Shown here piece by piece: positions 55,599 to 58,536 of a stretch of DNA of 64,000 bases. The stretch covers positions 1 to 64,000 of the forward strand of contig JAVKIP010000009.1 of the NCBI GenBank assembly GCA_031459385.1. Reading direction: 5' to 3'. The DNA is from Candidatus Fervidifonticultor secundus (lineage in GTDB: Bacteria > Sysuimicrobiota > Sysuimicrobiia > Sysuimicrobiales > Humicultoraceae). The stretch's first letter is position 1; each line of letters begins with the position of its first letter. The notes under the pieces were generated by a model. That model saw only the letters and a list, made by a program, of their open reading frames with translations, did not search any database and was not told the DNA's origin. The position numbers and the translations under genes are program-made.

Positions 55599-56231
55599 TT
55601 ACCAGACCACCGGATGGCGGGCCGGCGTCGTCCGCTCGCGGGTCGGCAGCGCCTGTCCCGCATCGGGCACGCAGTCCTTGCCGGCGAACACCCCGACGCC
55701 CACCACCGCGTTGACCTGGGTGCGCCCGGTGGTCGTGCCCAACGTGGAGAACGAGACTGTCCACGCGGCACGCGGGCCGTCCTGGCTCACGGCGGCCGTC
55801 CCCACCACGAAGAAGGCTGCGTCGAAGACGTTGTAGGTCCCATTGGCGTTGCGCGTCGTGAGGTCGATGAAGCGCTCGTGGCCCTGGCCGCCGCCGCAGG
55901 GCGGCACGAAGCTCACGCCCGTCGCGCTGTTGAGGTCGGTGTTGAACCCGATGCCGCCGCTGAACTGCGTGGACGATGCCGACGTGCCGGGCGCAGGCAG
56001 TACCGGGTCGGGCTGTGTCCACAGGCGGACCTCGAGCGTCGAGGTCCCGCGCACGGTCCGCAGTTCCAGCACGTCGAACGTAGGTGCCGATCCTGCATCG
56101 CCCGCGGGATCGGCGGTGACGCTCACCCCGGGATCGATCGGCGTCTGGTTCAGGCCCTCCAGTTGTCCGCACGCCGCCACCACGACCACGACCGCCGCCA
56201 GGGCGACCATCTGCGCCAGTCGCATCCCCAT
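55599..56231 (-). CDS. Hypothetical lipoprotein
   Basis: MRLAQMVALAAVVVVVAA-C lipobox; beta-rich mature part with DPAGD motif and two further Cys. Confidence 0.7.
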   Translation of the reverse strand: MGMRLAQMVALAAVVVVVAACGQLEGLNQTPIDPGVSVTADPAGDAGSAPTFDVLELRTVRGTSTLEVRLWTQPDPVLPAPGTSASSTQFSGGIGFNTDLNSATGVSFVPPCGGGQGHERFIDLTTRNANGTYNVFDAAFFVVGTAAVSQDGPRAAWTVSFSTLGTTTGRTQVNAVVGVGVFAGKDCVPDAGQALPTRERTTPARHPVVW

Positions 56232-56341
56232 CGCCTCACATTCGGCCCGGCACCGCCCGAAGCCCCTTGGTGCTGCCACGTATACGGATCGGCGGCGCAC
56301 GCGGTTCTACGAGGGGGACGGCAAAGACGCGTCGGGGCGGC

Positions 56342-56374
56342 AAAACGAAAAGGCGACGGGCACTCCCGCCGCCT
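56342..56374 (-). terminator. Intrinsic terminator after the micropeptide gene
   Basis: AGGCGGCGGG-AGTG-CCCGTCGCCT followed by TTTCGTTTT. Confidence 0.8.
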
Positions 56375-56397
56375 CTTCGGGGGCAAGCGCCGTGCTG

Positions 56398-56442
56398 TTA
56401 CTTGCCCTTCTTCTTGGCGGCCTTCTTCGCCTTCTTCGCCAC
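56398..56442 (-). CDS. 14-aa Lys/Ala-rich micropeptide MAKKAKKAAKKKGK
   Basis: AAGGAGG SD 9 nt before GTG; all 8 Lys codons are AAG; TAA stop; own terminator; AT-rich promoter-like tract (TATATATAGT) ~65 nt upstream. Confidence 0.65.
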   Translation of the reverse strand: MAKKAKKAAKKKGK

Positions 56443-56604
56443 CGTCCTCGCCTCCTTCTCCTGGAAGATGGACGGCAGACCCGTGCCGTCGGGTGTTCGT
56501 TCGCCACTATATATAGAATCTCCTGCTCCCTCGGACACAATTTCTTGGCATCGCCTCGCAGGGCGCTGCAGGACCCGACTGCGGGGGTGGCCGAATTCCT
56601 CCGC

Positions 56605-58536
56605 GTGAGGCAGCCGGCGCCACGAACGCTCCTGCGCACCGTGCTCCTGGCGGCGGTCGCGGTCATGGCCGCCGCCTCGGGGGCGACAGCCCAGGCGACC
56701 GCCACGGACTTGGGCGGGCACTGGGCCGCGGCCCGGATCGCCGACCTCGTGCGCCGCGGCGTGGTCGCCCTCGACCCGAACCGCCGCTTCTATCCCGACC
56801 GTCCCCTGGCCCGCGCCCAGTACATCACGTGGCTCGCGGCCGCGCGCGGTCTGTCGTCGCTGCGTGTCGAGATGCCGAGCTTCGCCGACGTGCCGCCGGA
56901 GCACCAGGCCGCGGCGGCGATTGAGAGCGCGGTGGCGGTGGGCATCGTACCGCCCGGCGGCCTGTTCCGCCCCGGCGAGGCCATCACGCGCGCCGAGGCC
57001 ATCGTCTTCCTCGTCCGCGCCCTCGGCCACACGTTCGAGGCTGCCTACATGGTCAACGCGCCGCTGCCCTATGCCGACGTCGACCACCTGGAGCCGACGG
57101 TGCGCGGTGCCATCGCGGTTGCCGCGCTGAGCGAGCCGCCGTTGTTGCGCGAGCCGCCCGCCGACCGCCTGCGGCCCGCGGAGGCCGCCACACGCGCGGA
57201 GGCCGCCAGCCTGCTCTGGGCTTACCTGCAGGCCGTCGAACGCGGCGCGCGCCTCCGCTTCAGCACCACCCTGGGCCAGGGCGTGACGCTCATCCTCGAG
57301 AAGCGGGGGGCGCTGCGCATCACCCCGACCTGGCGCGTCCAGGTGGGGGCGTTCCTGGAGGAAGACCGGGCCCGCCGGCTGGCCGCGGCGATGCGCGCGC
57401 GGGGGTATGCGACCGACGTGGAGGCGGTCGACGAGGTCTTCCGGGTGCGCGTCGGGCAGTTTCGCACCCGCGAGGACGCCGAGACGTTCCGCCTGCGCCT
57501 GGGGCCTGAGGCCGCCTCGGCGCAGGTGATCCTCACGGTGCAGGACTACGACGCGCTCTCCGGTCCTTTCTGGACCGGCATGCTCCTGGTAGAAGCGGCC
57601 AGCGGCGTCCGGCTCCGGCCCGCCCTGGCGCTGGAGACCGGCGTGGGGCGCGGTCGCGTGAGCGAGGCGGCCCGGCGGGCCGGCGCGCTGGCGGCGGTCA
57701 ACGGCGGCTTCTTCCACGCCGCCACCGGCGACCCGCTGGGCTGCCTGGTCATCGACGGGGAGGTCGTGAGCGAGCCCATCCTGGGCCGCACCTGCGCGGG
57801 GATCACCAACGACGGCCAAGTGCTCTTCGACACCATGCGGTTCGACGCCGGCGTGGAGGTCAACGGTACGCGCCTGCCGGTCAACGGCGTGAACCGGGCC
57901 CGGGGTGCCGATGAACTGATCATCTACCGTCCGGCCTTTGGCCCGTCCACGCGCACGAATGCGTTCGGCACCGAGGTCGCCGTCGTGGGCGGCGTGGTCG
58001 AGCAGGTGGTCGACGGCCGGGGAAACACCGCGATACCCGCCGACGGCTTCGTGCTGTCCGCGCACGGCCGCACGCGTCCGGCGCTGACGGCGCTGCGGCC
58101 GGGCGACCGCGTGACGGCGTGGATGCGCTTGGTGCCGGTCTCCGGCGACCCCAGATGGGAGGACGTGCGGCACATTATCGGCGGCGGGCCGCGGTTGCTG
58201 GCCGACGGGCAGTACATCGGGGGCGAGGGCTTCCGGCCGTCGTTCACCGACCGCCGGCACCCGCGCACCGCGATCGGCCGCCTCGAGGACGGCCGGACGC
58301 TGCTGGTCGTGGTCGGCGGCCGGCAGCCCTATCACAGTCTGGGCATGACGCTCCCGGAGCTGGCGGCCGTCCTGCGCCTGCTGGGCGTCACCGATGCTCT
58401 GAACCTGGACGGCGGAGGCTCCACCACCCTGGTCGTGCGCGGCGTGGTCGTCAACCTGCCGTCGGACGAGACGGGCGAGCGGCCGGTGGGCGACGTGCTG
58501 CTGGTGATGCCGCCGGCCACGCAGGAACAGCCCTGA
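56605..58536 (+). CDS. Secreted SLH + SPOR + phosphodiester glycosidase (NAGPA/DUF2233) protein
   Basis: Signal peptide; SLH motifs (HWA, FYPDRP.RA, FADV, FRP...ITRAEA, ATRAEAA); SPOR WRVQVGAF...A...FRVRVG.F; AAVNGGFF, GGGP.L, HPRTAIG, A.NLDGGGST. Confidence 0.85.
   Translation: MRQPAPRTLLRTVLLAAVAVMAAASGATAQATATDLGGHWAAARIADLVRRGVVALDPNRRFYPDRPLARAQYITWLAAARGLSSLRVEMPSFADVPPEHQAAAAIESAVAVGIVPPGGLFRPGEAITRAEAIVFLVRALGHTFEAAYMVNAPLPYADVDHLEPTVRGAIAVAALSEPPLLREPPADRLRPAEAATRAEAASLLWAYLQAVERGARLRFSTTLGQGVTLILEKRGALRITPTWRVQVGAFLEEDRARRLAAAMRARGYATDVEAVDEVFRVRVGQFRTREDAETFRLRLGPEAASAQVILTVQDYDALSGPFWTGMLLVEAASGVRLRPALALETGVGRGRVSEAARRAGALAAVNGGFFHAATGDPLGCLVIDGEVVSEPILGRTCAGITNDGQVLFDTMRFDAGVEVNGTRLPVNGVNRARGADELIIYRPAFGPSTRTNAFGTEVAVVGGVVEQVVDGRGNTAIPADGFVLSAHGRTRPALTALRPGDRVTAWMRLVPVSGDPRWEDVRHIIGGGPRLLADGQYIGGEGFRPSFTDRRHPRTAIGRLEDGRTLLVVVGGRQPYHSLGMTLPELAAVLRLLGVTDALNLDGGGSTTLVVRGVVVNLPSDETGERPVGDVLLVMPPATQEQP

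Follow-up and report, generated by a model that had tools for sequence, protein, structure and literature searches.

The stretch analysed here, called the window below, comprises 64,000 nucleotides (nt) of Candidatus (Ca.) Fervidifonticultor secundus (contig JAVKIP010000009.1, positions 1 to 64,000). Its minus strand carries an open reading frame (ORF) of 14 codons, eight of them for lysine and all eight of these AAG, which starts with GTG and encodes the peptide MAKKAKKAAKKKGK. Judged by the substitutions among its relatives and by a second copy in the same genome, this micro-ORF is a gene under selection as a peptide and not a product of chance, and comparative sequence analysis strongly supports its reading as a stand-alone micro-gene (Table 1).

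Conservation of the peptide and a second copy in the genome

A 201-nt DNA query was compared with 41 related genomes and the loci returned were aligned. The query matched 25 of the 41 genomes, among them 20 of the 24 from the organism's own family (f1), with 79–92% identity. The genome counts in this text include two unpublished genomes, G019 (201-nt query, f1 and SigH counts) and G010 (f1, SigH and promoter-locus counts). The 12 loci found by similarity represent six genera, and the 14-residue peptide that they encode is the same in all of them. Once aligned, their ORFs differ at sites 9, 12, 15, 27 and 45, all of them third codon positions, and the changes are either synonymous or swap the stop codons TAA and TAG. 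Five random sites among 45 would all land on the 15 third positions with a probability of about 0.002; a larger substitution count is partly circular, as some loci came from a pattern that fixes the peptide. The length variants found elsewhere in the micro-gene family differ by whole codons. The Shine-Dalgarno (SD) sequence AAGGAGG does not vary among the 22 aligned sequences of type A, the form present in the window. The relatives thus display the conservation of ORF, SD and peptide, with synonymous-only variation, that an earlier sequence-only reading of this DNA had named as the check on its proposal.

The micro-ORF is in frame with a stop-free stretch of 645 amino acids, antisense to the neighbouring SLH-domain gene, in a genome of 72% G+C. 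This longer stretch was ruled out as coding by insertions or deletions just upstream of the GTG in relatives (1 nt in loci L003 and L040, 2 nt in L009), because of which the frame does not extend upstream of the start codon. In the 3.30-Mb genome, only two small ORFs of 8–45 amino acids contain at least 35% lysine, the window copy and a paralogue. SD-preceded ORFs with at least 40% lysine plus arginine number 11, and more than two lysines are found only in the same two. Gene callers miss ORFs this short, as the sequence-only reading had remarked, and three relatives of 20–29 amino acids are indeed absent from a collection of 15 billion proteins.

The paralogue, which belongs to a second form (type B), lies on another contig (C57:124426, plus strand) and is unlinked to the window copy. 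It starts with ATG and encodes the same 14 residues, with synonymous differences from the window copy at codons 2 and 8. It has its own AAAGGAGG, leader and terminator, and both its leader and its tail are unrelated to those of the window copy. Selection as a peptide is concluded because the variation is synonymous only and because the second copy has an identical peptide although its leader is unrelated. Type B leaders have a hairpin at the same place as the type A hairpin, with quite different sequences. In type B the terminator stem, GAGCACTGC/GCAGTGCTC, shows no variation in any of the 11 loci, which come from six genera (in the organism's own copy it lies at L079:3075-3115), and across the loci with this stem the peptide varies in length from 11 to 20 residues. 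The window hairpins and the type B palindrome are each unique in the genome, which excluded their origin from a repeat family. In all five type B loci whose neighbours were determined, a gene of the beta-eliminating-lyase family lies on one side and a convergent MlaD gene on the other.

Related micro-genes across the phylum

Fervidifonticultor belongs to Ca. Sysuimicrobiota, formerly CSP1-3 (PMC11604079). For a chemoautotrophic enrichment of this phylum metatranscriptomes have been published, whose reads were mapped to predicted coding sequences only (PMC11604079). A degenerate pattern for the exact peptide matched 16 stretches in a collection of species-representative genomes, all of them metagenome-assembled genomes of uncultured organisms, with Candidatus Fervidifonticultor spp., 'Armatimonadota bacterium' and Ca. 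Nitrosymbiomonas sp. among their titles. A wider family pattern, GGAG-N5-24-AARAAR-N3-9-AARAAR, was found at three places in the organism's own genome, namely both copies and one false match, and in 90 of the 94 genomes of the phylum, while the reversed-pattern control was also frequent outside f1. Because the pattern counts in families f2, f4 and f5 were near those of this control, we counted only matched strings that read by eye as an SD, a start codon and a lysine run.

By this count the micro-gene is present in 32 of 34 genomes of f1, 19 of 23 of f4 and 11 of 12 of f5 (plus genome G028, found separately), and in one to three copies in each of the three f2 genomes inspected. The type A peptides of f1 are MAKKAKKAAKKKGK and, in diverged genera, MAKKKAAKKKKGK, MAKKKKAGKKKK and MAKKATKKKAGGKKKGR; those of f4 are MATKKKAAKKGKKR and variants, and those of f5 have 27–30 residues with AKKA/AKKT repeats. 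Related lysine-rich micro-genes of 11–30 residues are thus found in at least four families of Ca. Sysuimicrobiota. What persists from family to family is the lysine-rich ORF, the strong SD and the promoter type; the RNA sequences of different families are unrelated. We propose that they form one family of Lys/Ala(/Thr/Gly) peptide genes, with one to three members per genome across the phylum, which would have in common the promoter type, a structured leader, a strong SD and a terminator.

Fifteen DNA sequencing runs contain about 5% of the words sampled from window positions 55900–56900; the runs derive from metagenomes of soil, sediment, rhizosphere, subsurface, mats and hot springs. These words could represent the conserved core of the micro-genes of relatives.

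A SigH-type promoter motif

Of 33 micro-ORF loci, drawn from four families, 28 carry the motif AGGA-N16-19-G[AT]A[TC] upstream, consistently 36–94 nt from the start codon. It is present in 8 of 8 type A loci, 11 of 13 type B loci, 4 of 5 loci of f5, 5 of 6 of f4 (the sixth being a truncated locus) and 0 of 1 of f2. In random 135-nt windows of the genome, the loose motif occurs in 1.4% and its strict form in 0.4%. The spacing is AGGA-N18-GAAC in the window copy and AGGA-N17-GAAT in the paralogue, the f4 and f5 copies carry GTAT at -10, and CGAAC is conserved in 21 of the 22 aligned type A sequences. The AT-rich tract that the sequence-only reading had described as promoter-like is the 18-nt spacer between AGGA and GAAC. 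The conserved promoter-like elements are these two flanks; the tract itself is not kept in the paralogue. A sigma-70 reading of the tract was rejected, as a consensus scanner gave no match in positions 55900–56900 and, among relatives, A is not conserved as the second letter of the candidate hexamers.

As reported for Sporomusa, Bacillus subtilis and Clostridioides difficile, SigH promoters combine a -35 AGGA with a -10 GAAT over a spacer of 17–18 nt (PMC12456013). From the likeness of the motif we infer that the micro-gene promoter is of the SigH type. The resemblance to the SigH promoters of Bacillota lies in AGGA/GAAT, in the spacer of 17–18 nt and in the presence of a SigH equivalog; the differences are the other phylum, the lack of a Spo0A over cut-off in the organism's own genome, and the GAAC of the window copy and GTAT of f4 and f5. 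The SigH/SigR of another report (PMC2375139) are actinomycete factors and unrelated.

A full-length SigH equivalog is encoded in the genome at C11:57690-58283 (TIGR02859 of NCBIfam, 350.8 bits against a cut-off of 294.8). TIGR02859 is over its cut-off in 84 of the 94 genomes of the phylum, so that contamination is not the explanation. No Spo0A was found over cut-off in the organism's own genome, and a link to sporulation was therefore dropped; the main text of the paper describing the phylum makes no mention of spores, sigma factors or an outer membrane. AGGA-N17/18-GAAT occurs 72 times in the genome, compared with 37 times for spacers of 12/13 and 22 times for spacers of 22/23, and several of the matches, with CAGGAGAT at -35, precede an SD and start codon of other genes. 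Together this suggests that some tens of promoters in this genome make up a SigH-type regulon.

Structure of the transcript

The three helices of the transcript were subjected to a covariation test on the 22-sequence type A alignment, with slid and shuffled controls. For the structure as a whole, 90.2% of the cells are paired, against 41–60% when slid, and the covariation score is 0.225, against 0.10–0.15 when slid; none of 500 shuffles reached 0.225. In the terminator stem, 7 of the 13 pairs have changed on both sides. In the hairpin around the stop codon 90.9% of the cells are paired and two of the seven pairs show changes on either side, and in diverged type A loci other lysine codons pair with a CCTTCTTC block at its position. 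The leader hairpin has 94% of its cells paired, and four of its seven pairs never vary within type A. The terminator therefore has a G+C-rich stem kept by compensatory change and a T-rich tail, which upholds the intrinsic terminator of the sequence-only reading although a simple scanner listed none.

The predicted transcript of 151 nt folds at -72.7 kcal/mol with a z-score of -4.12, and none of 200 shuffles was as good. In the minimum-free-energy fold, UGCCGUCC does not pair with the 5' arm of the leader hairpin; it pairs instead with the region of the start codon, and the adjacent CUUCC pairs with the SD. RNAalifold gives the same SD-hiding helix, backed by one-sided changes only. Most type A sequences take the SD-hiding form when their leaders are folded without constraint, and the conformer in which the 5' hairpin is forced is a few kcal/mol less stable. 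A long-range pairing of the SD region with the region beyond the terminator was discarded, since it is lost once the transcript ends at the terminator.

The f4 leaders are of unrelated sequence and have the same three-part layout: GAGGGGC can pair with GCCCCCC, or GGCCCCCCU with the SD AGGAGGGCC. In seven of eight f4 leaders the form with the paired SD has the minimum free energy. In these loci (L092:1462-1640 and seven others), the 5' hairpin consists of an arm that mimics the SD and an opposing anti-SD arm; in the 3' hairpin of f4 the SD sequence is repeated once more (GGAGGGCGC...GGGCCCTCC). Because the leader has two predicted folds, one of which pairs the SD and the start region, translation is probably gated, and we regard the leader as a candidate translational gate.

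Layout of the unit

The elements of the unit are collected in Table 1. The leader hairpin, the SD, the GTG start, the 14 codons with eight AAG lysines and the TAA were read directly from the sequence and are as the sequence-only reading had given them; its description of the sequence was accurate. The transcript probably begins at the leader hairpin or close to it. A TTGTG block (56536-56540, minus strand), about 12 nt upstream of AGGA, is conserved in type A loci; a regulator might bind there, or the block might be an UP-like element or a piece of the promoter of the divergent SLH gene.

Table 1. Elements of the micro-gene unit, in positions of the window; all lie on the minus strand.
Element	Position	Strand	Remarks
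-35-like AGGA	56521..56524	-	Invariant in type A loci; candidate SigH-type promoter
-10-like GAAC	56499..56502	-	18 nt past AGGA; candidate SigH-type promoter
5' leader hairpin, GACGGCA (56490-56484) / TGCCGTC (56477-56471)	56471..56490	-	Read from the sequence
Block CATCTTCCAGGAG	Between leader hairpin and AAGGAGG	-	Read from the sequence
Alternative helix over SD and start codon, UGCCGUCC with GGACGG(UG) and CUUCC with GGAGG	56442..56477	-	Predicted fold
SD AAGGAGG	56451..56457	-	8-nt spacer to the start codon
Micro-gene, GTG (56442-56440), 13 codons, TAA (56400-56398)	56398..56442	-	Product MAKKAKKAAKKKGK
Hairpin around the stop codon, GGGCAAG (56407-56401) / CTTGCCC (56387-56381)	56381..56407	-	Missing from the sequence-only reading
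Intrinsic terminator, 13-bp G+C-rich stem (56377-56348), loop AGTG, T-rich tail to 56342	56342..56377	-	Covariation

Proposed mechanism and function

We propose, with moderate confidence in the account as a whole, that the unit is a translated free-standing micro-gene with a SigH-type promoter and a gated leader, and that its product is a polycation that binds nucleic acid. The promoter AGGA-N18-GAAC would start a monocistronic RNA of about 150 nt. In one fold of this RNA the 5' hairpin would be formed and the ribosome-binding site open; in the other, predicted in silico to be the more stable at 37 °C, the middle arm that both folds use would pair with the SD and the start region. Heat, 5' processing or the product itself are candidate triggers of the gate. 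The strong SD would drive translation of the 14 codons, whose coding nature is indicated by the substitution pattern, and transcription would stop at the covarying terminator. Methionine aminopeptidase removes the initial methionine when alanine is at position 2; as alanine occupies this position here, the product would be the 13-residue peptide AKKAKKAAKKKGK. With eight positive side chains and no hydrophobic face, it may be a diffusible polycation of the cytoplasm, binding nucleic acid there and neutralising it.

As to the target of the peptide, DNA or the nucleoid, bound much as a histone-H1 or HU tail would bind it, is our tentative choice; ribosomal RNA (rRNA) or the ribosome is a rather doubtful one, and the rest of the weight falls to something else. 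Non-specific electrostatic binding is favoured because the charge is carried exclusively by lysine, with no arginine, in a 72% G+C genome where arginine codons are cheap, because the spacers are alanine, threonine or glycine, and because differences in length are tolerated.

Several observations weigh against this account. All of the 19 sequencing runs listed for positions 55900–56900 are DNA, none being an RNA run, and the consensus scanner listed neither a terminator nor a sigma-70 promoter in this interval. The promoter is assigned by motif, and in the window copy GAAC stands in place of GAAT. The SD-hiding helix has zero compensatory double changes and is broken in L009; the conformer forced into the SD-hiding form was one register off, and no energy comparison is drawn from it. 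In the 22-sequence alignment the leader and the stop-codon hairpin are more conserved than the synonymous sites, and the type B terminator stem stays invariant while its peptide varies. The function, a polycation that binds DNA or rRNA, we infer from the composition of the peptide. A free 13-mer may be degraded fast unless it is bound. Finally, five spermidine-synthase-like matches are present in the genome, and on their account an encoded substitute for polyamines was rejected.

Comparison with tiny ribosomal proteins and histone-like tails

The alternative that survives best, although we regard it as unlikely, is that the two paralogous genes encode a dedicated ribosomal micro-protein or hibernation accessory that fills a conserved pocket of the rRNA as bS22, eL41, bL37 and bTHX do. 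The pocket of bS22 is that of h44/h45/h27 in the 16S rRNA. Members of this class have 24–33 residues, a fixed length and arginine mixed with lysine, whereas the peptide described here has 14 residues (11–30 in the family), a variable length and a charge of lysine only. The class is nevertheless alike in being very short, very basic, often uncalled and encoded by stand-alone genes in which a GUG start is possible (PMC10618245). The nearest precedent for the micro-gene is thus found among the tiny basic ribosomal proteins discovered by cryo-electron microscopy, such as the bS22 of Borrelia, which is described as a protein of 30 residues with 61% Lys/Arg and a GUG start, unannotated and found only by this method, and whose authors expect more such cases (PMC10618245).

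The ribosomal reading stays alive because the type A peptide is invariant over six genera, because ribosomal precedents exist and because the genome has no match to bS22 or bTHX. A six-frame search of the genome with PF08213 (COX24_C), which finds bS22, gave no match at expect values (E) up to 10 (in the control, the profile matched 4 of 14 reference genomes, one over cut-off), and PF17070 (Thx/bTHX) gave none in the same genome, in agreement with the statement of the sequence-only reading that known tiny ribosomal proteins do not match. The strong SD and the lack of any other SD-preceded basic micro-ORF in the genome also favour a ribosomal role. The lengths, however, range over 11–30 residues in the phylum and 11–20 in type B of a single family, unlike those of pocket binders; the composition is Lys/Ala only, with neither arginine nor aromatic residues, in a genome rich in G+C; the promoter resembles one of the SigH type and not a housekeeping one; and no profile matched in the genome searches or with the 27- and 29-residue relatives. 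Searches of Pfam and NCBIfam with these two relatives, at E up to 10, returned only a chance-level match to valine-tRNA ligase (E 3.4), and a sequence search of the PDB with them gave no match.

Chlamydial Hc1/Hc2 and the C-terminal tails of actinobacterial HupB are histone-H1-like Lys/Ala tails. The micro-gene peptides resemble them in their AKKA/AKKT low-complexity Lys/Ala sequence, most clearly in the f5 members of 27–30 residues, and differ from them in that these tails or proteins have 50 to more than 100 residues and sit on or form a folded protein, while the product here would be a free 13–14-mer. The histone H1-like Hc1/Hc2 profile did not match the 27- and 29-residue relatives. In the ESM Atlas a 30-residue f5 member is present letter for letter, and the clusters listed are nameless and of 31–39 residues. 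The nearest named cluster carries the chlamydial histone-like HC2 family (score 0.86, 20% of members), which is below the level that counts and gives only a weak lead towards a relation to histone-like proteins. No description of such Lys/Ala micro-genes was found in the literature searched.

The RNA as a possible product

The RNA itself may carry a function, because the leader and 3' hairpins out-conserve the synonymous sites and because the type B stem is invariant in all 11 loci. In its full form, which we consider improbable, this explanation makes a regulatory or dual-function RNA the product, and the micro-ORF would mainly load ribosomes that stabilise or gate it. The unusually structured 151-nt transcript would fit such a role. 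What speaks against it is that the RNA sequences are unrelated across families while the lysine-rich ORF, the SD and the promoter type persist, that the two copies in the genome have the peptide in common and not the leader or tail, and that all variation in the ORF is synonymous. In addition, Rfam 15 gave nothing at the gathering score, the best match being CsrC with 20 bits against a threshold of 61 and covering the terminator only, so that the known non-coding RNA that would have undone the sequence-only reading did not appear.

Neighbouring genes

Upstream of the unit and divergent from it, on the plus strand from 56605, lies a gene for a signal-peptide protein with SLH, SPOR and NAGPA domains. 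It adjoins type A in the window and in all seven relatives whose upstream ORF had a Pfam match. The genes around the two copies give no hint of a transporter, a regulated gene or a partner enzyme.

Among antimicrobials, short cationic peptides form a common class. Together with the position of type A beside this cell-envelope gene, this would fit a peptide that serves as a precursor or substrate and undergoes export or modification or acts outside the cytoplasm, perhaps as a polycation with antimicrobial activity or one that binds the envelope. We consider such a role very improbable, since the peptide has neither a signal peptide nor hydrophobic residues, no conserved transporter, protease or modifying enzyme is found at either locus, the neighbours differ between the copies, and the SLH gene is divergent and not co-transcribed.

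Downstream and co-oriented (55599-56231, minus strand) is a lipoprotein-like ORF of 210 residues with a signal peptide and a cysteine and with no Pfam family. This ORF is an insertion peculiar to the organism's own genome (G000), and L003, from the same genus, and the other relatives are without it. It is followed in the window by a convergent acyl-coenzyme A (acyl-CoA) dehydrogenase gene, whose 3' end the unit abuts directly in 8 of the 10 relatives tested; in L004 the unit abuts an ORF for a flavin adenine dinucleotide-dependent (FAD) oxidoreductase, and the downstream ORF of L010 was outside the test. Relatives thus mostly have a convergent gene next, in line with the stand-alone unit of the sequence-only reading, and because of this arrangement the window micro-ORF is not a leader peptide.

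The leader peptides of attenuators (his, thr, leu, trp) are likewise short ORFs rich in one amino acid and followed by hairpins and a terminator; here, however, most relatives lack a co-oriented downstream operon, and the folds show no antiterminator alternative. That the lysine codons and an attenuator control the lipoprotein gene through the supply of lysyl-tRNA, as might be thought from the eight lysine codons, the ORF 3' end and stop within a hairpin adjoining the terminator, and the start of the lipoprotein gene about 110 nt past the latter, is already contradicted by the synteny (no lipoprotein gene in L003, the convergent acyl-CoA dehydrogenase gene in most relatives, the convergent MlaD gene in all five type B loci) and has next to no probability, the more so as the G+C core of the terminator is free of alternative pairing, no antiterminator exclusive with the terminator appeared in single-sequence or alignment folds, and the lipoprotein has neither a Pfam family nor a link to lysine.

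Significance

A gene of 14 codons lies beneath the floor of gene callers, yet the evidence for this one is strong: an identical peptide among relatives, a second copy in the genome and related genes across the phylum. Its standout features are the pair of paralogues, the phylum-wide spread and the combination of an apparently shared SigH-type promoter with switch-like leaders. This promoter type and these leaders offer testable handles on the timing of expression, on the opening of the leader and on whether the nucleoid or the ribosome is the target. The SigH equivalog, known from Bacillota, is near-universal in this uncultured phylum, and the one genome tested has no Spo0A over cut-off.

A more far-reaching possibility, which we hold to be a long shot, is that the product is the smallest protein yet seen bound to the ribosome or the nucleoid, a SigH-controlled oligolysine of 13 residues with its synthesis gated by a leader that mimics its own ribosome-binding site; it would then be one local form of a hidden, near pan-bacterial class of genetically encoded polylysines that switch the charge or compaction of nucleic acid, or the activity of the ribosome, on entry into non-growth. 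As far as sequence comparison can tell, the gene is conserved, has never been annotated, and belongs to a class of tiny polycationic peptide genes that has been little known so far.

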